The notes: generated from the letters alone by a model not told the origin. A DNA stretch of 64,000 bases from Candidatus Sungiibacteriota bacterium (GCA_016180435.1 JACPBG010000002.1:60342-124341), one strand, 5' to 3'; counted from the stretch's first letter, positions 9,053 to 34,500 are shown. A program made the numbers and translations.

Positions 9053-10675
9053 ATGTATAAAAAAGTACCCACCGATGGAATTCGGAAAAAATCAAAACCC
9101 AATCGGCTGGAATCAATTCCGGTAGAGGATCCGTTTGTGGAGCCGTCCACCGAGTTGATACCCGCCGCCGTGCAGGAAAAAATCCAAGAAGGAGCGGAAG
9201 CGCTGGAGCGTTTTATGCGTAGAAAAAGCATGCCCGCTGCAGATATGGAGAGGGCCGAAGAAGAGGAGAATTCGGTTGCTCCGGAAGAGAATCCATCCGA
9301 AGGGATGGAAACCGTTTCCTCGCCCGAAGGAGAAATTTTGATCATTGAACCGCCCCCTGATCAGATAACTGTTACGGATGAAGATCAAGACGGCTGGAGA
9401 AAAATGCAGGTGATTCGCGGCTGGCTCGCGCGTGTCGCTATTTTGGTTTCTAAAAAATTCTTTACGCGCAGAAACGCCGAACCGGAAGAATCCCGGCCGA
9501 GCAATTTTATTTCCCAGTCCCGTAAGATAATGAGCATTAAGGGCGGGATAATAACGGGATTGGGGGCGGTAATAATTATTTTTATTCTTTTGTCCACGGT
9601 TTTTGCGCGGCTTACGGTGCATATATCGCCGCGGGCGGAGCAGATAAATATTCGCGATGTAACGGCTCTTTTTGATGCGTCAGTAGTCAAGCTTATGCCC
9701 GAAAAAAAAGTTATTCCGGCCGAACGGCTTGAATTCACCCGGAATATTTCCAAGGAATTTGAAACAACCGGCAAGGAACTTGTGGAAGAACGCGCCCGAG
9801 GAAAAGTAAAAATTTATAATCGTTTCAGTTCCTCACCCCAAGGGCTTATCGCCAATACAAGATTTCTAACCGATTCCGGAGTTTTGTATCGATTATCTTC
9901 GGCAGTTATTATTCCGGGCGCTAAAATAGAGAATGGATCAATTGTTCCGCAATTTATTGAGGCCGAACTGCTGGCGGATAGTGCGGGTACGGAGGCTAAT
10001 TTGGATGGCGAGATCCGTCTAAATATACCTGCTTTTAAAGGGGGGCCGAAGTATGATGGATTTTATGCTATGGCATCTGCCGGATTTTCCGGGGGGTTTG
10101 AGGGAGAGGCGCGGGTCATTTCGAAAGAAGATCTTTCGGCGGCTGAGAAAGCCGTTACCAAGACCGTTTTTGATGAACTGCGTGATGAGATGAAGCGGAA
10201 AATTCCACCAGAATTTAAATCTGTTGAGGAGTTTTCCGAAACAGAAATTACGAAAGTTGTCTCGCCGCAGGCGCGTATGCGGACCGAGAAGTTCGTAGTG
10301 GAAGCATCTGCCCGCGGGCGCGTACTTATTTTCCGCGAGCGCGACGTCCGTGATTTGGTGCGTTTCATTGTTATCGGAGATGATGCCTCCAAAAAATTGG
10401 TGGATCAATCCGCAGAATTAAATTATAGGATTCGCAGCGGAGATTTGAAGTCCGGTCGGGTTGAAGCCGTAATAAACGGAAAGGTTCGAACGGAATTTAT
10501 CATTCCGCGGGAATCTCTTGTACAGGATTTTCTGGCTAAAAAAGAGGGGACTATCGCCGAAATAATGAAGTCCCGAGCCGATATCGCCGGATTCCGTATA
10601 TCAATTTTCCCGCCGTGGCGGGCCAGCGCTCCCGGTAATCCGGATAAAATAAAGTTGATCGTGGAGGGACAATAG
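9053..10675 (+). CDS. membrane-anchored hypothetical protein (540 aa)
   Basis: The N-terminal region is acidic. There is one clear TM helix (IITGLGAVIIIFILLSTVFA) followed by a large extracytoplasmic domain. It starts 11 nt after the FtsA/PilM-like gene. Confidence 0.5.
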   Translation: MYKKVPTDGIRKKSKPNRLESIPVEDPFVEPSTELIPAAVQEKIQEGAEALERFMRRKSMPAADMERAEEEENSVAPEENPSEGMETVSSPEGEILIIEPPPDQITVTDEDQDGWRKMQVIRGWLARVAILVSKKFFTRRNAEPEESRPSNFISQSRKIMSIKGGIITGLGAVIIIFILLSTVFARLTVHISPRAEQINIRDVTALFDASVVKLMPEKKVIPAERLEFTRNISKEFETTGKELVEERARGKVKIYNRFSSSPQGLIANTRFLTDSGVLYRLSSAVIIPGAKIENGSIVPQFIEAELLADSAGTEANLDGEIRLNIPAFKGGPKYDGFYAMASAGFSGGFEGEARVISKEDLSAAEKAVTKTVFDELRDEMKRKIPPEFKSVEEFSETEITKVVSPQARMRTEKFVVEASARGRVLIFRERDVRDLVRFIVIGDDASKKLVDQSAELNYRIRSGDLKSGRVEAVINGKVRTEFIIPRESLVQDFLAKKEGTIAEIMKSRADIAGFRISIFPPWRASAPGNPDKIKLIVEGQ

Positions 10676-10736
10676 TTTGCCGCTTGACCTCCTAATATTT
10701 ATTTGTTAATATAGTTTATACGTTTTTATATACTGT

Positions 10737-10952
10737 ATGAAAAAAGAAAAAAATTATAAGGAGGGTATAGTCAATGAAAATTTACCGAACACGTTTTTTA
10801 AAGTTACGCTGGATGACGGCCGGGAAATTTTGGCCCACCTATCAGGAAAAATGCGCCTGAATTATATTAAAGTTCTTCCCGGGGACCGGGTGCGGATGGA
10901 AATGACGCCCTATGATGAGACTAAGGGGAGGATAGTACATCGCTTGAAATAA
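10737..10952 (+). CDS. infA: translation initiation factor IF-1
   Basis: 71 aa with [39 protein letters not shown]. Confidence 0.92.
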
Positions 10953-11080
10953 TTTCAATTTCAGACACGACTCAACCGCTCCGGCGGCGGTCTCGCTAAG
11001 GGTCGGACAAATTTTCGTCCCGATTGCGATCGGGATGATCCAAGCAAATTTGTCCTCCCATTGTCTGAAATTTAAATTAT
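10950..11080 (+). repeat. R3 structured intergenic element, copy 1 (infA-rpmJ spacer)
   Basis: Outer stem TTTCAGACA/TGTCTGAAA, P2 stem ACCGC/GCGGT, conserved CTAAGGGTCGG, P3 stem GGACAAATTT/AAATTTGTCC, conserved CCTCCCATTG. Confidence 0.8.
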
Positions 11081-11106
11081 TTCCTCGCTTATTTTTTAAA
11101 AAATGT

Positions 11107-11223
11107 ATGAAGGTACAAGCTTCCGTAAAACCAAGATGCGCCAAGTGTAAGACGGTCCGACGGAAAGGTCGGCTGTTTGTTATATGCCGCGTAAATAAGA
11201 AGCATAAGCAGAGGCAGGGATAA
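11107..11223 (+). CDS. rpmJ: 50S ribosomal protein L36
   Basis: [38 protein letters not shown]. The ATG at 11107 lies inside the longer track ORF. Confidence 0.92.
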
Positions 11224-11240
11224 GGCTCTTACGAGCCAGC

Positions 11241-11306
11241 ATCAAGAACTAAGATTTTAGAACTTAGCAAATTTTCTAAGTTCTAAGTTCTGGGTTCTAA
11301 GTTCTA
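11241..11306. repeat. R1 heptamer palindrome (rpmJ-rpsM spacer)
   Basis: aagaactaagattttagaacttag ... ctaagttctaagttctgggttctaagttct, then GTG. Confidence 0.85.
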
Positions 11307-11309
11307 TTT

Positions 11310-11696
11310 GTGAGAATTGTAGGTATTAACATTCCGGATAATAAAAAAATAGAATTTGCCCTCCCGTATATTTACGGGGTTGGTTTGCCGGCTGCGCGTA
11401 AAATTCTGCGCTCGTCCCAGGTTGATCCGCAAAAAACCGCAAAAGATCTGACTCCGCCGGAGATAAACCGCATTCGCGAGATTATTGAGCGAAATTATAA
11501 AATCGAGGGTGACTTGCGCCGCGATATCATGTTAAATATCAAGCGCTTGAAGGAGATTCAAACTTATCGCGGGGCGCGCCATATCCGCGGGCTCCCGGTA
11601 AGAGGCCAGCGAACCAAAACAAATTCCAGGACGCGCCGCGGCAATGTGCGTAAAACCATGGGATCGGGAAGAAAACCAGCAGCAAGCCCCACTTAA
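11310..11696 (+). CDS. rpsM: 30S ribosomal protein S13
   Basis: GTG start. The sequence shows RIVGINIPDNKKIEFALPYIYGVG and YRGARHIRGLPVRGQRTKTN. Confidence 0.92.
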   Translation: MRIVGINIPDNKKIEFALPYIYGVGLPAARKILRSSQVDPQKTAKDLTPPEINRIREIIERNYKIEGDLRRDIMLNIKRLKEIQTYRGARHIRGLPVRGQRTKTNSRTRRGNVRKTMGSGRKPAASPT

Positions 11697-11699
11697 AAT

Positions 11700-11786
11700 A
11701 AAGCACTTAGAACTTAGAACCTAGAACTTAGTAAATCTGCTAAGATCTAAGTTCTTGAATGCTAAGTTCTATGTTGCGAAGCAACA
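11700..11786. repeat. R1 heptamer palindrome plus GCGAAGC mini-hairpin (rpsM-rpsK spacer)
   Basis: agcacttagaacttagaacctagaacttag ... ctaagatctaagttcttgaatgctaagttct-atgttGCGAAGCaacat. Confidence 0.9.
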
Positions 11787-12230
11787 TTGGGTAAAAAGCG
11801 TATCATAACTAAATCTACCGAGTCATCCGAATCGAAAAAATCCGATAGCCAGCCGCCAGCCGGAATTTCGGTAACGCGGCGTGGCATACTGCGCGGTTGC
11901 GCTTATATTCAGGCAACTTATAATAACACCATTATTACCATAACCGACGAAAAGGGCGGCGTGATAGCGTGGTCTTCGGCCGGGTCCGTTGGATTTTCGG
12001 GAACCAAGAAAGCCACTCCGTTTGCAGCAGCGCGAGTCGCGGAATTCCTTGCTGAAAAAATGCGTAAAGCCGGTATTCAGGAGCTTATGGTTTTTGTAAA
12101 AGGGGTTGGATCAGGGCGTGATTCGGCGATTCGTGCGCTTGCCAATCAGGGGTTTGCCATTTCGCGCATCAAAGATATTACCCCCATCCCGCATAACGGG
12201 CCGAGACCCAGGAAACCAAGAAGAGTATAA
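11787..12230 (+). CDS. rpsK: 30S ribosomal protein S11
   Basis: TTG start directly after the GCGAAGC hairpin. The sequence shows [24 protein letters not shown] and [17 protein letters not shown]. Confidence 0.9.
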
Positions 12231-12323
12231 AGCACTTAGAACTTAGAACCTAGAACTTAGAATTTATAATTAAAGTATTTACTAAGTTCTAAATACTAAG
12301 ATCTAAGTTCTTTTGCGAAGCAA
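12231..12323. repeat. R1 heptamer palindrome plus GCGAAGC mini-hairpin (rpsK-rpsD spacer)
   Basis: agcacttagaacttagaacctagaacttagaa ... ctaagttctaaatactaagatctaagttct-tttGCGAAGCaa-ATG. Confidence 0.9.
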
Positions 12324-12944
12324 ATGCCAAAGGTATTAGAAAAAGTAGAAAGGCGTCTTGGCGAAAAACTCTTTTTAAAAGGGGATCGTTGCGCTGGGCC
12401 GAAGTGCGCGGCAGTTCGCCATCCGAGTCCTCCGGGGATTCACGGCAAAACCCGCCGTCGCGCTCCTTCGGAATTCGGACAATATCTGCAGGGAAAACAA
12501 AAGGTTCGTTTTCTGTACGGTCTTGACGATCGTGATTTAAATCGGTATGCTAAGAAAGCCGAATCAATGCGCGGCGCATTTGCCGCGAAATTTTTGCAAT
12601 TACTTGAGCGGCGTCTTGATAACGTGGTGTTTCGTTTGGGATTTACCGGGTCGCGCCGGTCAGCGCGCCAAGCCGTATCACACGGCCATATTAGGGTGAA
12701 TGGCCGGCGTGTCAGTGTGCCGTCGTATCAGGTTAAAATCGGTGAAGTTGTTTCCATAAATCCCGGCGCCCGGCAAAGTTCTCATTTTGCCGATTTGGAA
12801 CATCGCTTGAAAAAGTATACTCCGCCCGTTTGGCTCGCTTTGGAAAAGGATCAAGTTGCGGGCAAGGTTGTCGGGTCCGCCGAATCAGATATGTCCGGAA
12901 CGTCCGGCGAACTTATAAAAATAAAAGAGTTTTATTCGAGATAA
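12324..12944 (+). CDS. rpsD: 30S ribosomal protein S4
   Basis: The S4 domain reads LERRLDNVVFRLGFTGSRRSARQAVSHGHIRVNGRRVSVPSYQV. Confidence 0.92.
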   Translation: MPKVLEKVERRLGEKLFLKGDRCAGPKCAAVRHPSPPGIHGKTRRRAPSEFGQYLQGKQKVRFLYGLDDRDLNRYAKKAESMRGAFAAKFLQLLERRLDNVVFRLGFTGSRRSARQAVSHGHIRVNGRRVSVPSYQVKIGEVVSINPGARQSSHFADLEHRLKKYTPPVWLALEKDQVAGKVVGSAESDMSGTSGELIKIKEFYSR

Positions 12945-12954
12945 ACACTAGACA

Positions 12955-13074
12955 GTGATGCCAATCCGATGCGAATTTAATGCCAATTTGGCGAATTGCG
13001 AATGAATTTAAAGATTAGCAATTTGTAGATTAGCATTTTATTTGTAGATTTGCATCATTGCGTGCGAAGCATAT
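12955..13074. repeat. R4 palindromic element plus GCGAAGC mini-hairpin (rpsD-rpoA spacer)
   Basis: gtgatgccaatccgatgcgaatttaatgccaa...attagcaatttgtagattagca...tttgtagatttgcatcattgcgtGCGAAGCatat-ATG. Second copy at 29546-29671. Confidence 0.85.
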
Positions 13075-14043
13075 ATGAGTATTCCACTTCCTTTAGCACC
13101 GAAGGCCGTTAGCGAAGAAGGAAATCGCGCTGTTTTTGATATAGAGGGGCTTTATCCGGGTTACGGCCATACCATCGGCAACAGTATGCGCCGCGTTTTA
13201 TTGTCATCTTTGCGTGGCGCGGCTATAACGTCCGTAAAAATAGAAGGCGTTTCCCACGAATTTTCTACTATAGAAGGAATTATGGAAGATGCGGTGGAGA
13301 TCATTCTAAACTTGAAACAGCTTCGTTTTCGCTTATATCAGGAAGAACCGGTCATGATCTCTCTTTCGGTTAAAGGCGAGCGGGAAGTAATCGGCAAGGA
13401 CTTTAAACTCCCGTCACAGGTGGAATTAATCAATCCGGATTTGCATATAGCGACTATTTCGTCCAAAAAATCCGGTTTGAGCATGGAGGCCACTGTGGAG
13501 GCGGGCATGGGTTACATTCCGGTGGAGGAGCGCACCAAGGAAAAAGTTGAAATAGGCGTGATCGCTTTAGATGCCGCATTTTCTCCGGTTCGCTATGTAA
13601 ATTATGATGTAGAGAATATGCGAGTCGGAGATCGCACCGATTATAATCGTCTGCGCCTTACCGTTGAGACTGATGGCTCGATTACTCCGCGTGAGGCATT
13701 TTTGCAGGCGGCCAGTATATTGGTTGAACAATTTTCCGTTCTAATCAAGGAAATGGAATCAAGTTCGGTAGAAATTGCACCTTCCGAAGAATATGCGCGG
13801 GGCGTATCCGAAGAGGCGGAAAAATCCGCCGGAGGCGAGGAGGATACATCCAAAATGAAGCTGGATGATCTGAAGTTATCCGGGCGCACCTTGAATATTC
13901 TGAAAGAATCCGGTATCAAGACCGTGGGAGGCCTTTCGCGTAAAAAAGAATCGGCGCTTCGGGAACTTGAAGGGATGGGGGATAAAGGGATGCAGGAAAT
14001 AAAGAAAGCGCTTGGAAATTTTGGAATTACTTTGAAGCCGTAA
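13075..14043 (+). CDS. rpoA: DNA-directed RNA polymerase subunit alpha
   Basis: NTD motif GYGHTIGNSMRRVLLSS. CTD motif LSGRTLNILKESGIKTVGGL. It sits in the alpha-operon position. Confidence 0.92.
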   Translation: MSIPLPLAPKAVSEEGNRAVFDIEGLYPGYGHTIGNSMRRVLLSSLRGAAITSVKIEGVSHEFSTIEGIMEDAVEIILNLKQLRFRLYQEEPVMISLSVKGEREVIGKDFKLPSQVELINPDLHIATISSKKSGLSMEATVEAGMGYIPVEERTKEKVEIGVIALDAAFSPVRYVNYDVENMRVGDRTDYNRLRLTVETDGSITPREAFLQAASILVEQFSVLIKEMESSSVEIAPSEEYARGVSEEAEKSAGGEEDTSKMKLDDLKLSGRTLNILKESGIKTVGGLSRKKESALRELEGMGDKGMQEIKKALGNFGITLKP

Positions 14044-14054
14044 TATTATAAATC

Positions 14055-14194
14055 TTCGGCTAATTTGATTTCAGACACGACTCGGCGGCTCCGGCGGCCG
14101 CCTCGCTAAGGGTCGGACAAATTTTCGTCCCGATTGCGATCGGGACGATCCGAGCAAATTTGTCCTCCCATTGTCTGAAATCAAAATAGCCTCG
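14055..14194 (+). repeat. R3 structured intergenic element, copy 2 (rpoA-rplQ spacer)
   Basis: Same core as copy 1, but the P2 stem is changed to GGCGGC/GCCGCC. Confidence 0.8.
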
Positions 14195-14250
14195 ATTTAA
14201 TCCAAGCTAATTACGAATTCTAAAATTTCCAACGCTAACGATGAAAAAAT

Positions 14251-14595
14251 ATGAGGAAGTTGAAAAAAGGGAGAAAATTTGGGAGAGAACGGGATCAAAG
14301 GAGGGCGTTACTTAAAAGTCTCGCCTCCTCATTTTTTATTGCGGGACGAATGAAAACAACGGAAGCCAAAGCCAAAGAACTCCGCCCGTATGTCGAGAAA
14401 TTCATTACCCGAGCCAAGGATCCGACACTCGCAAATCGAAGATTCATGCTGCGTTTTTTTTCGAGCGCAATTGTTGATAAAATTATTAAGCGTGGTGAGG
14501 AAATGCGTGAGAGAGCCGGAGGATATACCAGGGTTATTAAATTGGGACAGAGAAAACGAGATAGCGCGAGGATGGCGATATTGGAATTTGTTTAA
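14251..14595 (+). CDS. rplQ: 50S ribosomal protein L17
   Basis: MRKLKKGRKFGRERDQRRALLKSL and GGYTRVIKLGQRKRDSARMAILE. Confidence 0.92.
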   Translation: MRKLKKGRKFGRERDQRRALLKSLASSFFIAGRMKTTEAKAKELRPYVEKFITRAKDPTLANRRFMLRFFSSAIVDKIIKRGEEMRERAGGYTRVIKLGQRKRDSARMAILEFV

Positions 14596-14667
14596 AGAAC
14601 TTAGAACTTAGAACTTAGAACTTAGATATCTACTAAGTTTTAAATGCTAAGTTCTAAATGCTATGCG
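14596..14667. repeat. R1 heptamer palindrome (rplQ-rplM spacer)
   Basis: agaacttagaacttagaacttagaacttag ... ctaagttttaaatgctaagttctaaatgct, then a hairpin around the ATG. Confidence 0.9.
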
Positions 14668-15009
14668 ATGGAGCATCGCATTGATGCAGCTAATCAAATA
14701 CTCGGACGTCTGGCAACTCGCGTTGCGGTTCTTTTGCGCGGTAAAGATCGGCCTGATTTTGATCCGGCGCGTTTTTCCGATAACAAGGTGGCGGTTCATA
14801 ATACCGATAAAATGCGCGTGACCGGAAAGAAGATGCCGCAAAAAAAATATCGGCGGCATTCCGGTTACCCCGGCGGCTTGAAAGAAGAAGCGCTTGAGCG
14901 CCTTTTCGCACGCGACTCGCGTGAGGTTTTGCGCCGCGCGGTTTTAGGGATGCTCCCGAAAAATCGCCTGCGCAGTAGATGGATAAAGAATCTGATACTA
15001 CGTAAATAA
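14668..15009 (+). CDS. rplM: 50S ribosomal protein L13
   Basis: IDAANQILGRLATRVAVLLRGK and YRRHSGYPGGLK. The in-frame ATG at 14668 is preferred because the track start at 14644 lies inside the repeat element. Confidence 0.85.
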   Translation: MEHRIDAANQILGRLATRVAVLLRGKDRPDFDPARFSDNKVAVHNTDKMRVTGKKMPQKKYRRHSGYPGGLKEEALERLFARDSREVLRRAVLGMLPKNRLRSRWIKNLILRK

Positions 15010-21375: not shown

Positions 21376-22460
21376 AATTTGTTTCTTCTTAAATATATGG
21401 ACCTTGGATAATCGGCGGCAGTCACCAGTTCATCAATTCTTTCACTGATCAGCTCGCCGGTATTTCTTCCTCCGCGTCCGTCAATCTCGGTAAAATATAC
21501 TCCGTCTTTGGTGAGCATGACAATATGAGCGTCGTCGTAATAATACCAGCGCGCATCCAGAATCGGTTCCTGCAGGGTTATAATCTGTTCTATTAGGCCC
21601 TTTTTTTGAAACGGCTGGTATTCATTATCCTGCAGCCATAATATTTCTATACTGTTTTCTTTTTTTAAGATAAGTTTTTCTCCTTCCGTATCAAATGAAA
21701 TTGCTTTAGCGCCTCCGGCCAGGGGTTTCAATTCATTGGTTTCACTTTCTATTATAAAAAGTCCTCCGCCGGCATCCAAAATCGCCAATTCGCTGCGCGG
21801 CGATATGAAAAATTGCGCCGGTATTTTGTCAGAAAGGAAAAATCCCGGTCGGCCCAGCGTTTCAATCATCCCGTTACTATTTAATTTTGCCGCAAAACCG
21901 GCTTCGGTAATAAAAAATATAGCGCCGTCGATATAGGCAAATGAATTCACTCCGGGTGTCAGCACGGTTGTCGTGGCGCGGCCGTTTAGCACGCGGTCTT
22001 CAACCAGATTGTTTTTTTTATCAAGCCGAATTTTACGCGCGGAAGTGGTAGTCGCCAATCCCAAAGATATGATTTCGTCGCGTGTTGCCGTGGCGGTCAT
22101 GACCGGTGAGGGGATCAGGATGACATTTCGTATTTCGGTTACGGCGGCTTTTTCCACGGTTACGGTTTTTGACCAAGGCCGGTAATTTTCCTTTTCCAGA
22201 CGTAGCAGATGTATGCCGGGCCTGATTTCGGTCAATAGCGCCCCGCCGGAAAAAATTGATGTCTCTTTCTGAAATTCGTTGTCCAGAAAAATTGAGATGC
22301 TTGCGATCGTGGATTTTATAAAAATACCGCCGCGCTGCTCCAGCGAGCGTGATGATAAATTGATCGTATAGCCGAGCGAATGAGCAATTACTATCGGCAA
22401 AAGCACGATAAATGCGGCCAGCAGGAGATAAAAAATTTTTTTTCTGGTTGCCAGCTTCAT
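21354..22460 (-). CDS. membrane-anchored protein with a PEGA-like domain
   Basis: N-terminal TM helix, then IFLDNEFQKETS...GIHLLRLEKENYRPWSKTVTVEKAAVTEI. The stop overlaps the ABC transporter start. Confidence 0.55.
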   Translation of the reverse strand: MKLATRKKIFYLLLAAFIVLLPIVIAHSLGYTINLSSRSLEQRGGIFIKSTIASISIFLDNEFQKETSIFSGGALLTEIRPGIHLLRLEKENYRPWSKTVTVEKAAVTEIRNVILIPSPVMTATATRDEIISLGLATTTSARKIRLDKKNNLVEDRVLNGRATTTVLTPGVNSFAYIDGAIFFITEAGFAAKLNSNGMIETLGRPGFFLSDKIPAQFFISPRSELAILDAGGGLFIIESETNELKPLAGGAKAISFDTEGEKLILKKENSIEILWLQDNEYQPFQKKGLIEQIITLQEPILDARWYYYDDAHIVMLTKDGVYFTEIDGRGGRNTGELISERIDELVTAADYPRSIYLRRNKLWKKIEL

Positions 22461-22517
22461 ACTTATATTGTAGCAATTTTGCGGGCGTTTGAAAATAACG
22501 CCTTTTCACGCTACGAT

Positions 22518-23831
22518 ATGTTTATGTCTGTAGATAAATTTATTATTAAGGGCGGTAAGCCGTTGGCGGGTGAGATTGAGGTACGCGGATCCAAAAATGC
22601 CGCGACCAAATTGATGATTGCCTCACTTCTTACGGATGAGCCCTGTGTTATTGAAAATGTCCCGCTGTCGCAGGATACGGATATTACTTCAGAACTTTGC
22701 GGGAAAATCGGAAGCAATGTGGAGCTTGATCGTGATTTACATGCGATTAAAATCCATACGCCGAAGGTCTTGCATCCGGTTGTGCCGGAATTATCGCGGA
22801 AAAATCGCATACCCGTACTGGCTATCGGGCCGCTTTTGCATCGTACGGGCATTGCGGAAGTACCGGTGCTGGGCGGGTGCCCGATCGGGCACCGTCCCAT
22901 AAATTTTCACGTCGAGGCATTGTCTAAAATGGGGGTAGAGGTTGAGCGCCGGCCGCAATCATATTTTGCCAAGACCTCGGAGATCCATGGAGCTGAAATA
23001 GACCTTCCGTTCCCGTCTGTCGGCGCTACCGAAAATATAATCTTATTTGCGGTACTTGCCCGCGGGAAAACATTGATCCGGAATGCGGCCGTGGAGCCGG
23101 AAATTTTCAATCTGGTTGAGATGCTTCGCGGGATGGGAGCTGAAATTCTTTGGAGATCTGACGAGAGGATCATAGAAATAGAGGGAGTAAGCCGGCTCCG
23201 CGGAGTTTCGATAGAAACAATTCCGGATAGGAATGAGGCGGTATCATTTGCCGTGGCCGCCCTGGCAACCGGCGGAGAGGTTTTTGTGCGCGGGGCGCGC
23301 GAGGATCATCTGAAATCATTTATTGCTAAAGCGGTTGATGCGGGGGGATCGGTCTTTGTGCAGGATGGCGGCATTAAGTTTAAAGCCGGTAAGCGGTATG
23401 GGCCGGTTAAAATTGAAACCTCGCCACACCCGGGATTTATGACTGATTGGCAGCAGCCGTTTTGCGTTCTCTTGACGAAGGCGGACGGAGAATCAATAAT
23501 ACATGAGACGGTTTATGAGGATAGATTTGGTTATGTAAAGGATTTGACCCGCATGGGGGCGCGGATTGAGGTATCGGATAAATGTTGGGGTGATATGAAA
23601 TGCCGGTTTGCGGGCGTCTCCGCCATGCATAGTATCAGTATTAACGGGCCATCCCGTCTTCATGGGACAGATATTACCATGATTGATATCCGCGCCGGCA
23701 TGGCGCATATCATTGCCGCGCTTTCCGCTGAAGGAGAGTCGGTTATTACGGGGATTGAACACATTGATAGGGGATATGAGAAGATTGAGGAGAGGTTAAG
23801 AAAATTAGGGGCGGAAATTAGGAGGGTGTGA
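22518..23831 (+). CDS. murA: UDP-N-acetylglucosamine 1-carboxyvinyltransferase
   Basis: FIIKGGKPLAGEIEVRGSKNAATK, then RAGMAHIIAALSAEGESVITGIEHIDRGYE. The in-frame ATG at 22518 is preferred over the longer track ORF. Confidence 0.9.
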   Translation: MFMSVDKFIIKGGKPLAGEIEVRGSKNAATKLMIASLLTDEPCVIENVPLSQDTDITSELCGKIGSNVELDRDLHAIKIHTPKVLHPVVPELSRKNRIPVLAIGPLLHRTGIAEVPVLGGCPIGHRPINFHVEALSKMGVEVERRPQSYFAKTSEIHGAEIDLPFPSVGATENIILFAVLARGKTLIRNAAVEPEIFNLVEMLRGMGAEILWRSDERIIEIEGVSRLRGVSIETIPDRNEAVSFAVAALATGGEVFVRGAREDHLKSFIAKAVDAGGSVFVQDGGIKFKAGKRYGPVKIETSPHPGFMTDWQQPFCVLLTKADGESIIHETVYEDRFGYVKDLTRMGARIEVSDKCWGDMKCRFAGVSAMHSISINGPSRLHGTDITMIDIRAGMAHIIAALSAEGESVITGIEHIDRGYEKIEERLRKLGAEIRRV

Positions 23832-23841
23832 TTATCGCTCG

Positions 23842-23964
23842 GCATTTCGTTTTCAAGACACGCAAATTTTTGCCAGCGCAAAAATTTGCTAAGGGTCGGC
23901 GAAGTTTTCCGCCAAAGGCGGAACCATGCAAACTTCGCCTCCCATTGTCTTGAAAACAAAATGC
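23842..23964 (+). repeat. R3 structured intergenic element, copy 3 (murA-mreB spacer), with compensatory changes
   Basis: Outer stem TTTTCAAGACA/TGTCTTGAAAA, P2 stem GCAAATTTTTGC/GCAAAAATTTGC, conserved CTAAGGGTCGG, P3 stem GGCGAAGTTT/AAACTTCGCC, conserved CCTCCCATTG. Confidence 0.8.
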
Positions 23965-24014
23965 TTCGCATAATTTCAATCTTTTGGTGAGAGGAGAGGA
24001 AAAGGAGCAATTTT

Positions 24015-25025
24015 ATGTTTATTAGAAAAATAGGAATTGATCTTGGCACTGCCAACACCTTGGTGTTTGTGCCCAAAAAAGGGGTGGTGGTGAATGAGCC
24101 ATCCGTGGTTGCGGTTTCCAAATACGAGAACGCGGTTTTGGCCGTGGGAAATGAAGCGCGGGATATGATCGGCAGAACACCCGAAACCATTGTGGCGTAC
24201 CGTCCTTTGCGGGATGGAGTTATTGCGGATTATCGCGTGACCGAGGCCATGTTGCGCTATTTTATTTCCAAAGCCAGCGGCCGGGTTCGGCTTTTTCGTC
24301 CGGAAGTAATGGTTTCGGTGCCGGCCGGAGTCACATCCACCGAGCGTCGGGCCGTGATTGAAGCTACGGTGCAGGCCGGGGCCAAGGCCGCTTATGTGGT
24401 AAAAGAGCCGGTGTTGGCCGCCATCGGCGCCGGAATCCCTATTAATGAGCCGGCCGGACATATGGTGGTGGATATTGGCGGAGGCACATCGGATGTGGCG
24501 GTTATTTCACTTGGCGGAATAGTGGCATCCACTTCGGTAAAAGTTGCCGGAAACAAATTGGATCAGGCCATTGCCGATTATATCAAGCGCCATTATAATC
24601 TTGCGATCGGCGACCGGACTGCGGAAAATATGAAAATAAAAATTGGGTCAGCCGTGCCTATGGATGATCCAAAAATGAAAATGGAAATCAAGGGGCGCGA
24701 TTTGATGTCCGGTTTGCCGCGCACCATAGAGATCCATTCTATGGAAGTTACCGAGGCGATTTCGGATGAGTTGGATGAGATAATCCATGCGGTAAAATCC
24801 GTTTTGCATGATACTCCGCCCGAACTCGCGGCAGATATAATGGACCGGGGAATTGTAATGACCGGAGGCGGATCGCTTCTGCGAAATATTGACGAGCTGG
24901 TATTTCAGGAAACCGGCGTGCCGGCGCATGTGGCGGATGAGGCGCTTTTATGCGTGGCCAAGGGCACCGGAATCGCTTTGGAGCATTTGGATGTTTATAA
25001 ACGCAGTATCATGTCTAAGCGGTAA
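24015..25025 (+). CDS. mreB: rod-shape protein MreB, paralog 1 (orphan, next to murA)
   Basis: IGIDLGTANTLVFV, VVDIGGGTSDVAVISLGG and IVMTGGGSLLRNIDELV. Confidence 0.85.
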   Translation: MFIRKIGIDLGTANTLVFVPKKGVVVNEPSVVAVSKYENAVLAVGNEARDMIGRTPETIVAYRPLRDGVIADYRVTEAMLRYFISKASGRVRLFRPEVMVSVPAGVTSTERRAVIEATVQAGAKAAYVVKEPVLAAIGAGIPINEPAGHMVVDIGGGTSDVAVISLGGIVASTSVKVAGNKLDQAIADYIKRHYNLAIGDRTAENMKIKIGSAVPMDDPKMKMEIKGRDLMSGLPRTIEIHSMEVTEAISDELDEIIHAVKSVLHDTPPELAADIMDRGIVMTGGGSLLRNIDELVFQETGVPAHVADEALLCVAKGTGIALEHLDVYKRSIMSKR

Positions 25026-25161
25026 AGCGCGGCTCCCTTGGTATATTACAGAAAAAAGACGCTCGCAGGGTGTTAAATCTTTAAATTCTTAAATTTTAGC
25101 GATCCCATTACTTACTGTTATAAAAAATAGTTCCCGAGTTAAGTTAAGGGACTACCCTTGA

Positions 25162-25812
25162 ATGATAATAAAAAAATTTTTACATTCCTGTATTTTACTT
25201 GAGGAACAAGGGCGAAGACTCCTTATTGACCCCGGTGATATGTCGTTTTTCGAGAAGAAAATATCACCCGAAGATATCGGTGGGGCGGATGTTATAGTTT
25301 TTACTCATAGGCATAGTGACCATTTAGATCTAGACATATTAAAAAAATTTTTAAGTTTGAAACAAGCTAAAATTTTGGCTCATGAAGAAATTGGTAAAAA
25401 ACTAAAGGAGTCGGATATTCCATACACATCGATATCTGCGGGTGAGACGAAAATAGTTGAAGGATTTACTATCGAAACAATTGAGGCGCCGCATGGACAT
25501 GGTTTAAGTGTGCCCTCGCCGTATAATCTCGGCTTTAAAATAGACAATGCATTTTTTCATCCCGGCGACTGTGTCTCGTTAGAAAACATTGAAACTAAAG
25601 TTTTGGCACTTCCCGTTATGGGTTCTTGGATGCGTTTTCCGGAGGCAGTATTATTTGCTAAACGAGTAAAGCCACAGTATGTAATTCCTATTCATGATGC
25701 ACTTATTGGGGACGTATTCATTGATAGGGTTTACGACTATTATCGAGGGCCATTAGAAAAAGACGGCATTTCCTTTTATCAGCTTGGATTAGATAATTCG
25801 CTTGAGATATAA
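25162..25812 (+). CDS. MBL-fold metallo-hydrolase
   Basis: HxHxDH motif (THRHSDHLD), with downstream His/Asp ligand positions. Confidence 0.75.
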   Translation: MIIKKFLHSCILLEEQGRRLLIDPGDMSFFEKKISPEDIGGADVIVFTHRHSDHLDLDILKKFLSLKQAKILAHEEIGKKLKESDIPYTSISAGETKIVEGFTIETIEAPHGHGLSVPSPYNLGFKIDNAFFHPGDCVSLENIETKVLALPVMGSWMRFPEAVLFAKRVKPQYVIPIHDALIGDVFIDRVYDYYRGPLEKDGISFYQLGLDNSLEI

Positions 25813-25909
25813 CCCCATGTCGCTAACATTAAATTGAATACTTGGAGAAAAGAATGGTTTGCTGAAGACAGCCGTCTTCGGTGGGTAGTATTAAAATATT
25901 TTAAATTTT

Positions 25910-26302
25910 ATGTCGCGTGAAGGATTACAACCAATTGTTCCGGAATCCAATCCGGCGGTTAAGAAATTAAGCCCGCATGAGATAAGTGCGCAAAAAGTGC
26001 GTAAAGAATTTAATGAGAACGTGCAAGATGTTTTACCGCTGGTTAAACGTGCGCACTCTTTGAAAGAGCTTTGGCAAGCAGTTGATACCATAGAAAAATG
26101 GAGGAGTGACGTAGATCTTGCCAAAGATCAGGGCCAAGATATACCAGATCCGCGCGAGGACGAACAAGTAATGAAAGAATATTTGCTTCGATATACGTCA
26201 GGACCGCATCGGGATATTTCTCCGATTTTTAAAGAAGGAAGAAATATATTAAAAGACGAAGTCGCGAAAAAAATTAAAGAACTGGGATTATCTGAGAAAT
26301 AG
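25910..26302 (+). CDS. hypothetical protein
   Basis: 130-aa ORF. I recognise no motif. Confidence 0.4.
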   Translation: MSREGLQPIVPESNPAVKKLSPHEISAQKVRKEFNENVQDVLPLVKRAHSLKELWQAVDTIEKWRSDVDLAKDQGQDIPDPREDEQVMKEYLLRYTSGPHRDISPIFKEGRNILKDEVAKKIKELGLSEK

Positions 26303-26322
26303 TCAAAGAATTCCTCAATTTT

Positions 26323-26703
26323 ATGTCTGGAGGAAATCCATTTAAAGGATTAAAACTTAAACCAGCGCAGGAGAAAGAAGAAGTTAAAGAACAACCGGCT
26401 CCGGCGCCGCGGATTATCACCAAGCCAAAAAAATATTTGGAATCCGTGGGCATTACTGATTATACCTACGAAGAAAAAGCGGACGGAGTGCATTTTTATA
26501 TTAAGTTGTCCCCGGAAGACATGGAGGAAAAAATAAAACAAGCTCGATATGTTATTAATGCGCCGCCGTTAACTCCATTTCAAAGAGAAAAGTTGTTGCC
26601 ATTTGTAAAATTGATGAAACAGGATAGGAAGCTTGATTGTAAAGTTTTAGACGGAAATGCGTCCCGTCCCAATTTATTGGAGGTAGTTGTCTTTAAAAAG
26701 TAA
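26323..26703 (+). CDS. hypothetical protein
   Basis: 126-aa ORF. I recognise no motif. Confidence 0.4.
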   Translation: MSGGNPFKGLKLKPAQEKEEVKEQPAPAPRIITKPKKYLESVGITDYTYEEKADGVHFYIKLSPEDMEEKIKQARYVINAPPLTPFQREKLLPFVKLMKQDRKLDCKVLDGNASRPNLLEVVVFKK

Positions 26704-26760
26704 ACCACCCGACTGGATGTCGGGCGGCGATATGATGGGAAAGGATGGCGGGTTTTGTGA

Positions 26761-27153
26761 TCACGAGGCGGTGATATTTAGAAAAAATCCGTCGGGATGA
26801 TGCGTGATAGAAAGACCCGGGCCAGTGGTGCGAAGGAAAAGGTTTCCTTCAAGATCGGGATTCTCGGCAAACGTTTTACGCGTTTTCCGTTCAAGCACTG
26901 GCAACCTGCATAGGTCTGGAATATCCAGGCCGGTAGCGCCATCTATCACGCTTAGATAGAAATCCGCACCATCCCTTTCTATCCGTATGTTCGCATCTCC
27001 ATCGGTAAAAATAGTGACTGCGTCTATACCTATTGTAGGAGAGAGCACGCGATGGAGTGATGTTGCGACCGCATCCGTTCCTCCCATCAAAACCAGTTGT
27101 CCGTCCTCGTCCTTAAACTGGGATAATATAGCCCTGAGATTTGTGAGATCCAT
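26761..27153 (-). CDS. hypothetical protein, paralog of 31390-31875
   Basis: ATG at 27153 follows AGGAGG. A consensus promoter lies upstream and a terminator downstream. It shares the motif TDGDAxIxIxR..FYxxVxD with the other paralog. Confidence 0.55.
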   Translation of the reverse strand: MDLTNLRAILSQFKDEDGQLVLMGGTDAVATSLHRVLSPTIGIDAVTIFTDGDANIRIERDGADFYLSVIDGATGLDIPDLCRLPVLERKTRKTFAENPDLEGNLFLRTTGPGLSITHHPDGFFLNITAS

Positions 27154-27186
27154 ATGTAAAAGTCCTCCTCTGACTAAGATACCCAA

Positions 27187-27215
27187 ATTATACTATAATA
27201 GTATTTAAAAGTCAA
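27187..27215 (-). promoter_or_regulatory. near-consensus sigma-70 promoter for 26761-27153
   Basis: Minus strand: TTGACT (27215-27210), 17 nt, TATAAT (27192-27187). It abuts the holB GTG start. Confidence 0.7.
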
Positions 27216-28199
27216 GTGATTATCGGGCACGAACGGCAAATTGAATATCTGGAAAAAATCATAAGACGCGGGCGCATGTCCCACGCCTATTTATTTTTTG
27301 GTCCGGAACATGTAGGAAAATTCGCATTAGCCAAGGAAATTGCGCGTGTTTTAATGTGCCCGAATAAGAATAAGATCGGCGATGCCGGAGACGGATGCGC
27401 GGATTGCCGTCAAATTGAACAGGATATTCATCCCGGCGTAATAATTCTTGATATTGAACACACTCTTGTCTCCAAGAAAGAAATTCGTAAAGACATTCCG
27501 ATTGAAGATATACGGGAACTGAAACGCCGATTTTCTTTTGCTCCGGAGCAAGGAAAGTGGCGGATCGCTATAATTAATGAAGCGGAGAAATTAAGTGCCG
27601 AGGCCGCCAATGCGTTTTTGAAATTATTGGAAGAGCCGGGAGCGCGGACTCTTTTTTTGCTGGTAAGTTCGACGTATGATTCGGTTTTGCCGACCATTGT
27701 TTCGCGCGCCGAGCCGCTTAGATTTTCTTTGGTGTCAGATGCGATTTTGCGTGAATTTTTAGAACAAAAAAAGATAAGTCAAGATCAACGGGAATCTATT
27801 TTGAAACTTGCGGCCGGGCGCTCCGGGATTGCCATAAGATCCGTCGAGGATCCGTCTTATTTCATAAAACAGAAAAAAATACGGGATGAAATTGAATCAA
27901 TCCTCTCGTGCAAAGATATTCCGTCGGCTCTGGCCCTTACCGAGCGGGTTGCCAAAGACAAGGAGATGTTGAAAACCGCGGCTGATTTTTTGATCCGTTC
28001 ATTGCGCGATAACATCATCGCAACCATTCTGGAGTCCAAGACGTATCATACCAAAGTGGGACGGCTTAAAGAGATCCACCGCATTCTTTCCATAATAGAG
28101 TCCACCAACGTCAATCCGCGTCTGGCTATGGATGTGATGTTGATGGAGGCGTTAACCACTAACAGCACGAACAGCTTTGTCTATGGGTTTAGGTTGTAG
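27216..28199 (+). CDS. holB: DNA polymerase III subunit delta'
   Basis: HAYLFFGPEHVGK, a Zn-module-like CPNK..C..C, and SRAEPLRF. The last ~14 codons and the stop lie inside a repeat element. Confidence 0.8.
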   Translation: MIIGHERQIEYLEKIIRRGRMSHAYLFFGPEHVGKFALAKEIARVLMCPNKNKIGDAGDGCADCRQIEQDIHPGVIILDIEHTLVSKKEIRKDIPIEDIRELKRRFSFAPEQGKWRIAIINEAEKLSAEAANAFLKLLEEPGARTLFLLVSSTYDSVLPTIVSRAEPLRFSLVSDAILREFLEQKKISQDQRESILKLAAGRSGIAIRSVEDPSYFIKQKKIRDEIESILSCKDIPSALALTERVAKDKEMLKTAADFLIRSLRDNIIATILESKTYHTKVGRLKEIHRILSIIESTNVNPRLAMDVMLMEALTTNSTNSFVYGFRL

Positions 28200-28274
28200 A
28201 TGCCGGTATGGCGGGAGGGTTTTAGGCATAAGGCCCTAAAACTAATACCCTAAAACCGGACCGGCTTCTAAAAC
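28157..28274 (+). repeat. R6 element, copy 1, overlapping the holB 3' end
   Basis: cactaacagcacgaacag...gggtttaggttgtagatgcc...gggttttaggcataaggccctaaaac...cttctaaaac. An inverted copy lies at 43143-43264. Confidence 0.85.
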
Positions 28275-28292
28275 ATACACCTCATAACAGTT

Positions 28293-29543: not shown

Positions 29544-29545
29544 AA

Positions 29546-29671
29546 GCAGTGATGCCAATCCTATGCGAATTTAATGCCAAGCTGGCGAATTGCGAATAAT
29601 TATTAGCATAATTAGCAATTTGTAGATTAGCATAAGATTTGTAGATTTGCATCATTGCGGTGCGAAGCACA
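29546..29671. repeat. R4 palindromic element plus GCGAAGC mini-hairpin, directly upstream of frr
   Basis: Near-identical to 12955-13074. It ends ...catcattgcggtGCGAAGCaca-ATG. Confidence 0.85.
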
Positions 29672-30214
29672 ATGCTGGAGTTTAAAGTAAAACTTGAAAA
29701 AATAATTGAGCATCTCAAAACCGAGATCGCGTCTTTGCGCACCGGACGGGCAAGTCCGGCGCTGGTGGAGGATTTGGAAGTGGATTATTACGGCGCCAAG
29801 ACCCCGTTAAAAGCCGTGGCAGCAATTTCCTCTCCCGATGCTCGCCAGATTTTAATTCAGCCCTGGGATAAAAATGCGGTTCAGCCCATTGAGCGCGCGA
29901 TTCAGTCCTCGTCACTCGGGTTAAATCCTATTACGGATAAGGATTCCATCCGCCTTTCAATTCCTTCGCTTACCGAGGAGCGCAGAAGAGAGCTCACCAA
30001 AATTTTGGGGAAACACCTGGAAGAAGCGCGGATTGCGGTGCGGCGCGATCGGGAAGAAATGTTGAGAGAAATTGATAAACAGGAGAAAGACAAAAAAATT
30101 TCTGAAGATGAAAAATTCAGGCAGAAGCATGAAGCGCAGAAGATAATTGATGAGATAAATAAAAAAATAGAGGATATGGGGAAGGCGAAAGAGAAGGAGA
30201 TTATGACGGTATGA
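29672..30214 (+). CDS. frr: ribosome recycling factor
   Basis: LRTGRASPALVEDLEVDYYG, LGLNPITDKDSIRLSIPSLTEERRREL and RRDREEM. ATG at 29672. Confidence 0.9.
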   Translation: MLEFKVKLEKIIEHLKTEIASLRTGRASPALVEDLEVDYYGAKTPLKAVAAISSPDARQILIQPWDKNAVQPIERAIQSSSLGLNPITDKDSIRLSIPSLTEERRRELTKILGKHLEEARIAVRRDREEMLREIDKQEKDKKISEDEKFRQKHEAQKIIDEINKKIEDMGKAKEKEIMTV

Positions 30215-30229
30215 TGTATTTGCTTAGAT

Positions 30230-30410
30230 ATTTCAATTTTCAAACACGATTTGCTCGGAAACTACTTTTAAAAAACTTCGCGCCGACCCACCGTGTCGGC
30301 GCTCATCACGGGTCGGCCTCACTCGTTTCGCTTCGCTCAACACCGTGGCCGTTCGGCCTCCCAGTGTTTTTAAAAGCAGTTTTCCTCGCCTGCTGTATTG
30401 TTTCAGTTAA
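30230..30410 (+). repeat. R3-related element, expanded variant (after frr)
   Basis: Outer stem TTTTCAAACAC/GTGTTTTTAAAA, P2 stem GCGCCGAC/GTCGGCGC, core GGGTCGGCC...GGCCTCCCAGTG. Confidence 0.6.
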
Positions 30411-30532
30411 TTTTATTCAAGGGAGGTAGATGGGTTTGCTGAATGTAGCCGCCTGCGGCTTGTTTGTAATATTCAATAAATTATGATATTATATTTAGGT
30501 TGCCGCTATATGGGCGCAAAAGAGGAGGTTCT

Positions 30533-30961: not shown

Positions 30962-31004
30962 GCAATATGGTTTCTATTTTTTGTGTCGAATCAGATTCGG
31001 CACA

Positions 31005-31196
31005 TTTCATTTTAAAACACGTTCGGTTCGTTCAGCGACGAACCTCACTAAGCATCCGGCGATTCGCCGAGCACTCAATTTATCCCAAAATAGTTCCCGA
31101 GCCAGTCGAGGGACTACCTTTAGGGAAGTAAGTGTTGTAACAATAGGTTGAGTGTTCGGACCATGCCGAATCGCTTTCTGATTGTTTTAAAATCAT
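31005..31196 (+). repeat. degenerate R3-like element with an internal insert
   Basis: Outer stem TTTTAAAACAC/..TTGTTTTAAAA and a CTAAG box. The internal segment aaaatagttcccgag..gggactacc is also seen at 25124-25158. Confidence 0.45.
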
Positions 31197-31389
31197 ATTG
31201 CCTCAGACCGCATCGCTCGCTTAAAATTTTTACTCAATGAAGAAAAAAGGGGGTTTGCTGAATGTAGCCGCCTGCTTGTCTATCCGAAGTCGAAAGGCAT
31301 AGGAGGGCGGCGGCCTCTTATATAAAAATTCCACCCGACTGGATGCCGGGTGGCACATATTGATTGCGGCGGCGGAGGCGGGGAAACTA

Positions 31390-34194: not shown

Positions 34195-34400
34195 ATTATT
34201 TTGAAACATTTTTATTCGCCCTGCAGCCATAAATTTTCCAGAACTCCTATTCGGACAAAAATAATCGCTTCATACCCCGCATTTTTTAACGGGCTTCGGC
34301 CGCTCCGGCGGCGGCCTGCAGGGTCGGCGACTCGCTCATGCGTAATCATACCGAACCTACGTTAATGGAAAATTTCCGGCAAACAGGGCTCGCTTTATTT
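34195..34400 (+). repeat. degenerate R3-like element (after rseP)
   Basis: It contains GGCCGCTCCGGCGGCGGCC-TGCAGGGTCGGCGA, matching the P2 stem and core of R3. Confidence 0.4.
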
Positions 34401-34490: not shown

Positions 34491-34500
34491 TTGATTTTTA

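Follow-up and report, generated by a model that had tools for sequence, protein, structure and literature searches.

R3, a structure-constrained intergenic repeat element with a shared three-way junction in Patescibacteria

We analyzed a 64,000-nucleotide stretch of the genome of a Candidatus Sungiibacteriota bacterium (GCA_016180435.1 JACPBG010000002.1:60342-124341; hereafter the window) for an intergenic element, termed R3, which an earlier note on this DNA had put forward as a candidate structured RNA family. R3 is a non-coding, imperfect palindrome of 135-200 nt that lies between genes and folds as a single strand into a Y. It is a structured intergenic repeat element, set apart by a three-way junction, by nested CTCG modules, and by a junction sequence that is shared across many lineages of the ultra-small Patescibacteria. 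Its fold is conserved by paired changes, which makes R3 a structure-constrained family and not a collection of decaying repeats. The explanation that we favor, and to which we give about an even chance, is that R3 is a structure-dependent mobile or recombining DNA element, similar to the repetitive extragenic palindromes (REPs) and the miniature inverted-repeat transposable elements (MITEs), and that it is carried in mRNAs as an intercistronic hairpin.

The consensus fold of R3 comprises 45 pairs, distributed over four helices (P1, P2, P3, and P3a) that form a three-way junction. The outer stem P1 reaches ~20 bp, and beyond an internal loop it is often prolonged by an additional helix, P0, which sometimes takes in the stop codon. 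P2 is a hairpin with the loop UCCNGCG, and P3a is an inner hairpin that adjoins a conserved 3' bulge, ACCAAGCA. P3 begins with invariant GGG/CCC and GG/CC pairs that join two sequence boxes recognized in the earlier note; the boxes are indeed shared among the copies, but they were described as single-stranded and in fact partly pair together. About 25 junction bases are near-invariant. The junction box CUAA + GGGUCGG was invariant in 36/36 sequences, although these had been selected on the boxes, and variant subtypes carry paired changes there, e.g., GCAUCCGG/CCUCCUGA in L145:1606 (L numbers denote fetched loci). The inner ~4-10 bp of P1 (..GACA / UGUC..) are conserved, whereas the outer P1 and P0 vary between copies and are shared only within sub-families such as L137/L140/L162 and the subtype C described below.

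Conservation of this fold was assessed with two sets of sequences, a first set of 36 (3 from the window and 33 from public Patescibacteria genomes), chosen by the two boxes only, and a second set of 34 distinct sequences, largely independent of the first. Paired cells amounted to 90.5% in the first set, compared to 64.0% after shuffling (0/500 as high) and 37-50% with slid partners, and to 92.7% in the second set, compared to 63.2% after shuffling (0/500 as high) and 31-49% with slid partners. Double, compensatory changes were found at 36/45 pairs in the first set and at 38/45 in the second, with covariation scores of 0.648 observed vs. 0.175 shuffled and 0.691 vs. 0.182, respectively. In the first set, P3 was 98.5% paired with 8/13 pairs covarying, and all 7/7 pairs of P3a covaried. 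When mutual information was calculated for 78 non-redundant sequences, the top column pairs were overwhelmingly the predicted base pairs, the remaining ones being the closing pair of a CUCG module or neighboring columns; no pseudoknot or tertiary pairs appeared among these 78 sequences, the sole extra pair being the one that closes the CUCG module. The controls on both sets bear out the claim that the helices are kept by compensatory changes and not by repeat decay, and the P2, P3, and outer-stem sequences quoted in its support are complementary.

Six R3-type copies are present in the window, all on the plus strand: three clean copies of type A (c1, c2, and c3), two divergent subtypes, and one remnant (Table 1). 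The pattern GGGTCGG-N(25-55)-CCTCCCA occurs 4 times in the window, with 0.00 expected from shuffles. The three clean copies had been placed behind infA, rpoA, and murA, and both their presence and the gene names are correct, while the size of ~120 nt given for the element was too small. An expanded variant reported at 30230-30410 also exists, with corrected borders, and represents a subtype (B) that is conserved in other genomes; the fifth and sixth copies are additional to those named previously. Copies c1 and c2 show 93% identity across 120 nt and have dissimilar outer stems. Each clean copy adopts the three-way junction and is much more stable than shuffled versions of itself. The outer stem of c1 starts within the final infA codons and the stop codon, and its 3' end bears CCTCGCTTA; c1 has a folding energy of -62.3 kcal/mol (z = -8.9) and scores 124.8 bits (E = 6e-32) with the covariance model R1. 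The corresponding values are -73.1 kcal/mol (z = -9.1) and 133.1 bits (E = 3e-34) for the core of c2 (14056-14194), and -64.2 kcal/mol (z = -10.9) and 118.5 bits for c3, which has a long A+U-rich P2, no CUCG module at the P2 base, and a P0 that overlaps the stop codon. The flanks of the subtype B copy, c4, resemble a decayed type A shell. The fifth copy, of subtype C, has a ~80-nt insertion in the arm P3a and a 3' tail, CCGCATCGCTCGCTTA; it scores only 17 bits with R1 because of the insertion. The sixth copy aligns with L162:6843-6972 as far as GGGTCGGCGA and diverges beyond; it is a truncated remnant.

The family extends well beyond the window. A scan of one genome per species with the pattern TAAGGGTCGG-N(25-55)-CCTCCCATTG returned 39 loci, 36 of them in Patescibacteria assemblies; the 3 matches outside this group (L128, L130, and L144) have none of the surrounding structure, and we discounted them as chance matches. 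The strict pattern matched up to 14 times in one genome, that of Parcubacteria GW2011_GWA2_45_30, and on metagenome contigs, with groundwater among the sources, it identified at least 120 loci. Viral contigs contained 0 matches to the strict box pattern, and a link to phages was rejected, the 120 listed viral matches to a loose box pattern all being chance or coding on inspection. With the covariance model R1, built from 36 sequences, significant matches numbered 4 in the window, 48 among the genome loci, and 125 across 100 metagenome loci. The pooled matches formed 111 clusters at 95% identity, i.e., at least 111 distinct copies. Individual genomes carry from several to >20 copies (22 in 96 kb of GW2011_GWA2_45_30), at a density of ~1 copy per 10 kb.

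The comparison with Rfam suggested in the earlier note yielded no matching family. With Rfam 15, no family reached its gathering score anywhere in the 64-kb window, which therefore harbors no tRNA, rRNA, or riboswitch, and nothing overlapped the copies on either strand at E <= 10 (10900-14300) or E <= 1 (23700-31300); the families covered include hammerhead, twister, twister-sister, pistol, hatchet, HDV-like, and ribosomal protein (r-protein) leaders. We found no description of R3 in the literature on structured RNA, MITE, REP, and RAYT in Patescibacteria, also termed CPR (Candidate Phyla Radiation), nor in one review that was checked for non-coding and regulatory content.

The conserved pattern had been attributed to selection on RNA (or single-stranded DNA) structure. 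Selection on structure is confirmed, but nothing shows that the selected molecule is RNA. Among 1578 pair cells, G·U occurred 28 times and A·C 42 times, and copies often differ by transversion swaps (CG/GC, AU/UA), for which no wobble intermediate is possible. The reverse complement was the more stable strand in 88/111 copies with RNA parameters and in 97/111 with DNA parameters, and the sense strand in only 23/111 (RNA parameters). The signature of a structured RNA, with G·U well above A·C and a more stable sense strand, is therefore not what the copies display. Pairs that are Watson-Crick only, transversion swaps, and a stabler reverse complement fit better with single-stranded DNA, or with reading of both strands, than with a sense RNA.

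A second hallmark of R3 is the sequence CTCG (loosely YTCR), found on both helix arms in up to three nested modules, which are located where the model match begins and ends, in the inner P1, and at the P2 base. Within the elements, CTCG occurs 283 times on the sense strand vs. 40 times for CGAG, and it is present at each end of the model match in ~47% of copies, compared to 4.5% of background windows. At the P2 base, YUCR occupies both module positions in 66-67/78 copies, and covariation is seen at the pair that closes the module (C-G 44, U-A 30; 78 sequences). In the fold, the module is read as C-G, U·C, C·U, G-C, i.e., two pyrimidine mismatches between two Watson-Crick pairs, and the opposite strand would read tandem G·A in a pyrimidine-GA-purine context, which is a stable motif in both DNA and RNA. 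Long forms of R3 have GCTCGCT on either side of P0. The possibility that GCTCGCT(TA) is a target or promoter motif occurring independently between genes was rejected, as it is not enriched away from R3; GCTCGCT is not free-standing and is therefore part of the element rather than a target duplication.

The position of R3 relative to genes was determined for the 111 representatives with a simple longest-ORF (open reading frame) gene picker, so that the gene calls behind the following counts are crude. All copies are intergenic. In tandem contexts, 45 copies are in the sense and 9 in the antisense orientation (p = 7e-7), 17 copies lie in convergent and 2 in divergent spacers, and the median distance from the upstream stop codon to R3 is 15 nt. 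The shared orientation of copies and flanking genes had been pointed out for the window, where it carries little weight, nearly all window genes being on the plus strand; only the wider sample establishes a bias. The preceding genes mostly encode core functions, namely S10 (3 genomes), L11 (2), L2, L3, IF-1, IF-2, RRF (3), RpoA, RpoC, RecA, MetK, and MurA (2), in addition to pilus and cell-wall proteins. About 1/6 of the copies are antisense to the neighboring genes; these copies are high-scoring and lie within operons (e.g., 20 nt upstream of rpoC in L186), and their helix pairing equals that of the sense copies (0.90 vs. 0.91, p = 0.32). Replication strand was rejected as the cause of the bias, as copies only a few kb apart on one contig change direction together with their local genes (L125, L143).

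The suggestion that R3 might be a terminator-like module gained no support. A terminator scan of 10600-14800 called no site at any copy and gave counts at the shuffle level, and the 3' flanks of R3 contain no consistent T-run; the G+C-rich hairpin followed directly by a U-tract that defines an intrinsic terminator is absent at the copies in this interval. A terminator-promoter cassette was likewise not supported by simple consensus scans for sigma-70 promoters and terminators around c1 and c2, both of which remained at the shuffle level.

We assessed the occupancy of individual spacers by following the alpha operon in relatives through RpoA homologs (an RpoA identical to that of the window carries the label Candidatus Sungbacteria, of the Parcubacteria/Patescibacteria lineage). 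The window itself (RpoA 100%) has R3 in the rpoA-rplQ spacer (c2), c1 after infA, and a hairpin with TTAGAAC heptamers after rpsK. In L168 (91%) the rpoA-rplQ spacer holds an R3 near-identical to c2, in which the contig ends, and in L169 (85%) it holds an R3 with all stems different yet complementary. R3 is missing from this spacer in L163 and L164 (84%; 66-nt spacer), which have it after rpsK, and in L165 (84%; 67-nt spacer), which has a subtype B copy after rpmJ and an unrelated A+T-rich hairpin after infA. More distantly, L166 (70%) has R3 in the rpoA-rplQ spacer and two more copies, before rpsM and after rpsI, whereas L167 (66%) has none there or across the 9-kb region. The spacers at rpoA-rplQ, rpsK, and infA thus differ in their contents among relatives, and occupancy is therefore dynamic, with hairpin families interchangeable at a given spacer. 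As a separate observation, the rpsK-rpsD spacer holds the TTAGAAC hairpin in the window and R3 in L163/L164. An empty-site comparison at rpoA-rplQ was abandoned, these spacers being too diverged for insertion borders.

Other features of the copies likewise bear on mobility. Subtype B also occurs at L141:270-403, L125:4669-4803, L162:7335-7486, and L165:1665-1801, and at L141:270 it is nested in a complete type A shell. The subtype C copy at 30999-31223 aligns over its full length, including the outer stems and 3' tail, with L145:1606-1739 and L183:299-428, the copies being ~85-90% identical at non-orthologous loci, after unrelated genes, and in different genera (MurA from the L145 genome is 73% identical to that of the window). 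Insertions are found in P3a (window 30999-31223) and P2 (L203), and truncated copies at 34280-34345 and L143:5755. R3 is also found behind a MurA ortholog (73% identical protein) in L141 and behind frr in L126 and L156. Among the three functions that had been proposed for R3, the structure-dependent mobile element gains most support from these gains and losses, nested and truncated copies, and the shared subtype.

If R3 is such an element, it would be moved or copied at the DNA level via a folded single strand, and a trans-acting protein would recognize the invariant junction and the CTCG modules. Candidate partners may be sought among HUH-type single-strand nucleases or transposases and site-specific recombinases, as in REP-RAYT, IS200/IS605, and attC-IntI. 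The element would be tolerated between cistrons because its ends pair, and would then be transcribed within the mRNA, where its ~20-30-bp helix could serve as, or replace, the intercistronic hairpin found in every spacer of these operons, possibly as a barrier to 3' exonucleases or as a site for a double-strand RNase. In the window, every spacer from infA through rplM does hold some hairpin or repeat.

Several results weigh against a mobile element. R3 recurs at the same gene ends in distant genomes (rpsJ x3, rplK x2, frr x3, murA x2, and rpoA x4), where the stems have fully diverged and still pair, and the junction is invariant group-wide; this looks like long-term purifying selection for a function and not mere parasitism. 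The paralogs within one genome are old, with a median identity of 69% and only 83-88% for the closest in GW2011_GWA2_45_30, and there is no recent burst of copies. No transposase, integrase, HUH, or reverse-transcriptase domain is encoded in the window or in the Pfam-scanned neighbors of R3, including the ORFs between inverted R3 pairs. Within the 1.26 Mb of fetched loci, no split element with an ORF between its halves was found, and the apparent orphans turned out to be single-base core variants. Clean empty sites and target duplications that vary from copy to copy are also lacking, as CTCG/GCTCGCT flanks all copies alike. Finally, a role in the transcript, or at least a filter acting there, is indicated by the 5:1 sense bias and the short distance to stop codons, of which such a role is the simplest explanation. 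DNA-like pairing and transcript-like position point in different directions.

The main rival, which we consider possible yet distinctly less probable than a mobile element, is that R3 is a cis-acting RNA, a 3'-untranslated or intercistronic module that punctuates the polycistronic mRNAs of highly expressed genes. Its long outer helix would protect against 3' exonucleases or offer a cleavage site for a double-strand RNase, e.g., RNase III, with the symmetric CUCG/CUCG loops marking the cut and the junction binding a conserved RNA-binding protein, and copies would spread through recombination between spacers. Such a module would account for the 45:9 sense bias, the median of 15 nt past the stop, the 17:2 excess of convergent over divergent spacers, and the nature of the preceding genes (r-proteins, IF1, IF2, RRF, RpoA, RpoC, RecA, MetK, and MurA). 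It also agrees with the occupation of identical gene ends in distant genomes with covarying stems, with the group-wide invariance of the junction, and with the other hairpin families that fill the same spacers in relatives, as though any hairpin sufficed. However, G·U is not favored over A·C, the gene-sense strand folds less stably than its complement, and intact antisense copies lie within essential operons, such as that upstream of rpoC in L186. Nor does a U-tract follow the stem, the promoter and terminator scans stayed at the shuffle level, pseudoknot or other tertiary covariation is lacking, and occupancy is not fixed even in close relatives.

More tentatively still, R3 could be the substrate of a hitherto unrecognized, structure-guided system specific to the Patescibacteria. 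This might be a new mechanism of single-stranded DNA transposition or recombination, acting on the three-way junction and the CTCG modules (tandem G·A on the bottom strand), or else a new class of functional RNA. Such an RNA, either a ribozyme or a protein-guided 'punctuation' module, would cut or cap cistrons in core operons, those for r-proteins among them, of organisms with minimal regulatory machinery.

Two further readings are improbable. Twister and hammerhead motifs are multicopy, scattered, and found in both orientations, and R3 resembles them in this behavior, in its size, its multi-helix junction, its ~25 near-invariant bases, and its strong covariation, so that R3 might be a novel ribozyme that cleaves itself, or some other RNA with catalytic or ligand-binding activity, with the conserved junction as its active site. 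We regard this as very unlikely: Rfam, searched on both strands at E <= 10 or E <= 1 in the intervals given above, yielded neither a ribozyme nor any other family, strictly Watson-Crick helices and a stabler reverse complement are atypical, tertiary covariation was not found, and it is hard to see why a cleaving RNA should lie in either orientation within essential r-protein operons. Just as unlikely is an immobile double-stranded or cruciform DNA site for a chromosome-organizing, topoisomerase, or DNA-uptake protein, as proposed for the gyrase sites of BIMEs (bacterial interspersed mosaic elements) and for pairs of the DNA uptake sequences DUS/USS at gene ends; Watson-Crick-only pairing, preservation independent of orientation, the location downstream of highly expressed genes, and invariant 10-12-mers would suit it, but it has no need of a three-way junction or of covarying stems, would not lead one to expect a strong sense bias or copies that are nested or truncated, and ~1 copy per 10 kb is far below the density of uptake sequences.

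Comparison with known systems places R3 closest in behavior to REP/BIME, Correia, and ERIC (enterobacterial repetitive intergenic consensus) elements, and in part to attC sites and IS200/IS605-derived palindromes, while it lacks the features of sequence and architecture that define each. R3 is of the same kind as the first three, with a fold that is much more elaborate and more widely conserved. REPs and BIMEs are high-copy, extragenic, imperfect palindromes at gene ends or inside operons, co-transcribed, with covarying stems and a short fixed motif; a single-copy HUH enzyme (RAYT, TnpA-REP) probably mobilizes them in the form of folded single-stranded DNA, and they have secondarily become useful as 3' barriers in mRNA. 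R3 shares the high copy number and the extragenic location at gene ends. In contrast, REPs are simple hairpins of 20-40 nt with a 5' GTAG-type motif and a species-specific sequence, whereas R3, at 135-200 nt, has a three-way junction, nested CTCG modules, and one junction sequence across many Patescibacteria lineages; it is no short palindrome, its tetranucleotide is CTCG on both arms, and no RAYT-like gene was seen in the window or in the Pfam-scanned R3 neighbors. The Correia (NEMIS) elements of Neisseria and the ERIC/IRU elements of enterobacteria, which are 100-160 nt long, recall R3 in several ways: they have long terminal inverted repeats, insert between genes and are co-transcribed, form long hairpins that are cut by RNases (RNase III for Correia), and vary in presence between strains. 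They differ in having conserved terminal repeats, a TA duplication (Correia), and no conserved internal junction, compared to the variable outer stems, conserved center, and lack of a variable target duplication in R3. As to MITEs in general, the repeats flanking R3 are always CTCG/GCTCGCT and not copy-specific target-site duplications, and no autonomous relative is present within the 1.26 Mb of fetched sequence.

Integron attC sites also lie directly after stop codons and nearly always in one orientation to the gene; their structure is kept while the sequence is free, their helices are Watson-Crick only, a branched tip is possible, and they are recombined as the folded bottom strand. However, the R''/R' core sites RYYYAAC / GTTRRRY are absent from R3, the ends of which read ..CTCGG.. 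and ..CCTCG(A/C).. with an inner stem GACA/TGTC. R3 is moreover dispersed and not arranged in arrays, its neighborhood yielded no integrase domain, the genes before it are housekeeping genes in r-protein operons, and it has a 25-base invariant center. The IS200/IS605-derived PATEs (palindrome-associated transposable elements) are non-autonomous, depend on hairpins of single-stranded DNA, cause no target duplication, have fixed tetranucleotides at both borders, and insert strand-specifically, all of which recall R3; they consist of two similar sub-terminal hairpins with a variable middle, whereas R3 has dissimilar arms, a conserved middle, and end-to-end pairing. The inverted terminal repeat of adeno-associated virus (AAV) is a T- or Y-shaped three-way junction of single-stranded DNA with GCTC repeats that are read by the HUH protein Rep. 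Several R3 copies hold GCTCGCTCACTAAGGGTCGG, compared to GCTCGCTCACTGAGGCCGGG in AAV2, a likeness in how the two might work that we offer as a lead and not as a relationship; the AAV repeat belongs to a eukaryotic virus and is the terminus of a linear genome, and the similarity to R3 is short and of low complexity.

The Patescibacteria make up a large share of bacterial diversity, and the non-coding sequence of their tiny genomes is almost unexplored. R3 occupies a noticeable fraction of this scarce intergenic space, within the most conserved cellular operons, and its covariation is among the strongest one can ask for, yet it is in none of the RNA-family libraries searched. If R3 is mobile, an enzyme recognizing a folded three-way junction is implied; as an RNA module, R3 would instead reveal the way in which these reduced cells divide up their polycistronic transcripts. 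Whichever reading holds, the covariance model is a practical marker for annotating Patescibacteria genomes.

R3 may also matter for assembly. The public contigs L121-L123, of 1.06-1.13 kb and with the rpoA of the window, stop ~30-60 nt beyond rpoA, near the start of R3, which suggests that R3 breaks up short-read assemblies of these genomes; mobility of R3, if true, would also account for such breaks.

Table 1. Positions of the R3-type copies, the parts of copy c2, flanking genes, and TTAGAAC hairpins in the window
Feature	Position	Strand	Context or basis
R3 copy c1, type A	10946..11091	+	between infA and rpmJ; sequence
R3 copy c2, type A	14049..14199	+	between rpoA and rplQ; sequence
c2 extra outer helix P0	TAAATC 14049-14054 with GATTTA 14194-14199	+	extended fold
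c2 outer stem P1, 5' arm	14058..14077 (partner 14172-14191)	+	folds; P1 pairs covary across copies
c2 CUCG/CUCG module and hairpin P2 (GGCGGC / GCCGCC), conserved loop UCCNGCG	14081..14105	+	alignment
c2 junction box CUAA + GGGUCGG	14106..14116	+	GGG and GG pair with CCUCCC 14164-14169
c2 stem P3	14117-14124 with 14157-14163 (whole 14117..14163)	+	encloses P3a and 3' bulge
c2 hairpin P3a	14125-14148	+	inside P3
c2 conserved 3' bulge (A/U)CC(A/G)(A/U)GCA	14149-14156	+	alignment
R3 copy c3, type A	23830..23975	+	between MurA-type gene and mreB; sequence
R3 copy c4, subtype B (CUCAUCACGGGUCGGCCUC...GGCCUCCCAGUG)	30254..30388	+	after frr; R1 41 bits, E = 9e-9
Fifth R3 copy, subtype C (CACUAAGCAUCCGG...CUUUCUGAUUG)	30999..31223	+	after DUF3307 gene; sequence
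Sixth R3 copy, 5' half only (P2 plus GCAGGGTCGGCGA)	34280..34345	+	after site-2 protease gene
infA (IF-1)	10737-10952	+	Pfam
rpmJ (L36)	11107-11223	+	Pfam
rpoA (RpoA)	13075-14043	+	Pfam
rplQ (L17)	14251-14595	+	Pfam
MurA-type enolpyruvyl transferase	22380-23831	+	domain search
mreB (MreB)	24015-25025	+	domain search
TTAGAAC hairpins	116-188, 752-821, 11229-11305, 11693-11756, 12222-12311, 14595-14662, 52458-52534, 54711-54755, 58768-58804		intergenic

Some sequences downstream of R3 are recurrent. The motif GGGTTTGCTGAATGTAGCCGCC(TGC) is found at 25855-25879, 30432-30456, 31251-31275, and 34453-34477, lying 45-110 nt downstream of three R3-type copies, and related tails occur elsewhere, e.g., GCTCGCTTA-N(10-20)-CTTAATGTATCC in GW2011_GWA2_45_30; tails of this type may be part of the R3 3' end. 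At 34462-34490 the motif runs into a canonical hairpin with a T-tract, and directly beyond this terminator-like hairpin, at 34500-34543, lies a perfect 44-nt palindrome, AACTGTATCTAAAATTACGCTT|AAGCGTAATTTTAGATACAGTT, which is a weak match to the model on both strands.

The window contains further repeats. A second family of hairpins, made of runs of the heptamer TTAGAAC and its complement, follows rpmJ, rpsM, rpsK, rplQ, and other genes. A ~110-nt repeat with 94% identity is found upstream of rpoA (12953-13062) and upstream of frr (29547-29659), and the syntenic locus L126 has R3 in the spacer before frr instead of this repeat. A G+C-rich 52-nt repeat (GGCCGCCCCGCAGAGCGGGGCGAGCCTCGCCCC...), 92% identical between 507-558 and 54570-54621, stands amid A+T-rich sequence. 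The adjacent paralogous ORFs 38635-40593 (652 aa) and 41377-43101 (574 aa) share internal repeats (families D4, D10, and D18) and have no Pfam match. At 11253-11339, a sub-threshold match to Alpha_RBS, the S4-binding leader of the alpha operon (24.6 bits vs. a gathering score of 38, E = 0.008), spans a hairpin and the start of rpsM, and may be merely conserved 5' coding sequence of rpsM. Among the relatives, the complete Sungiibacteriota genome CP066690 (L167 5424-5696) has a GIY-YIG gene between rplQ and rplM, and in L124 (3909-7874) the ribonucleotide reductase gene before R3 contains an intein with a LAGLIDADG domain.

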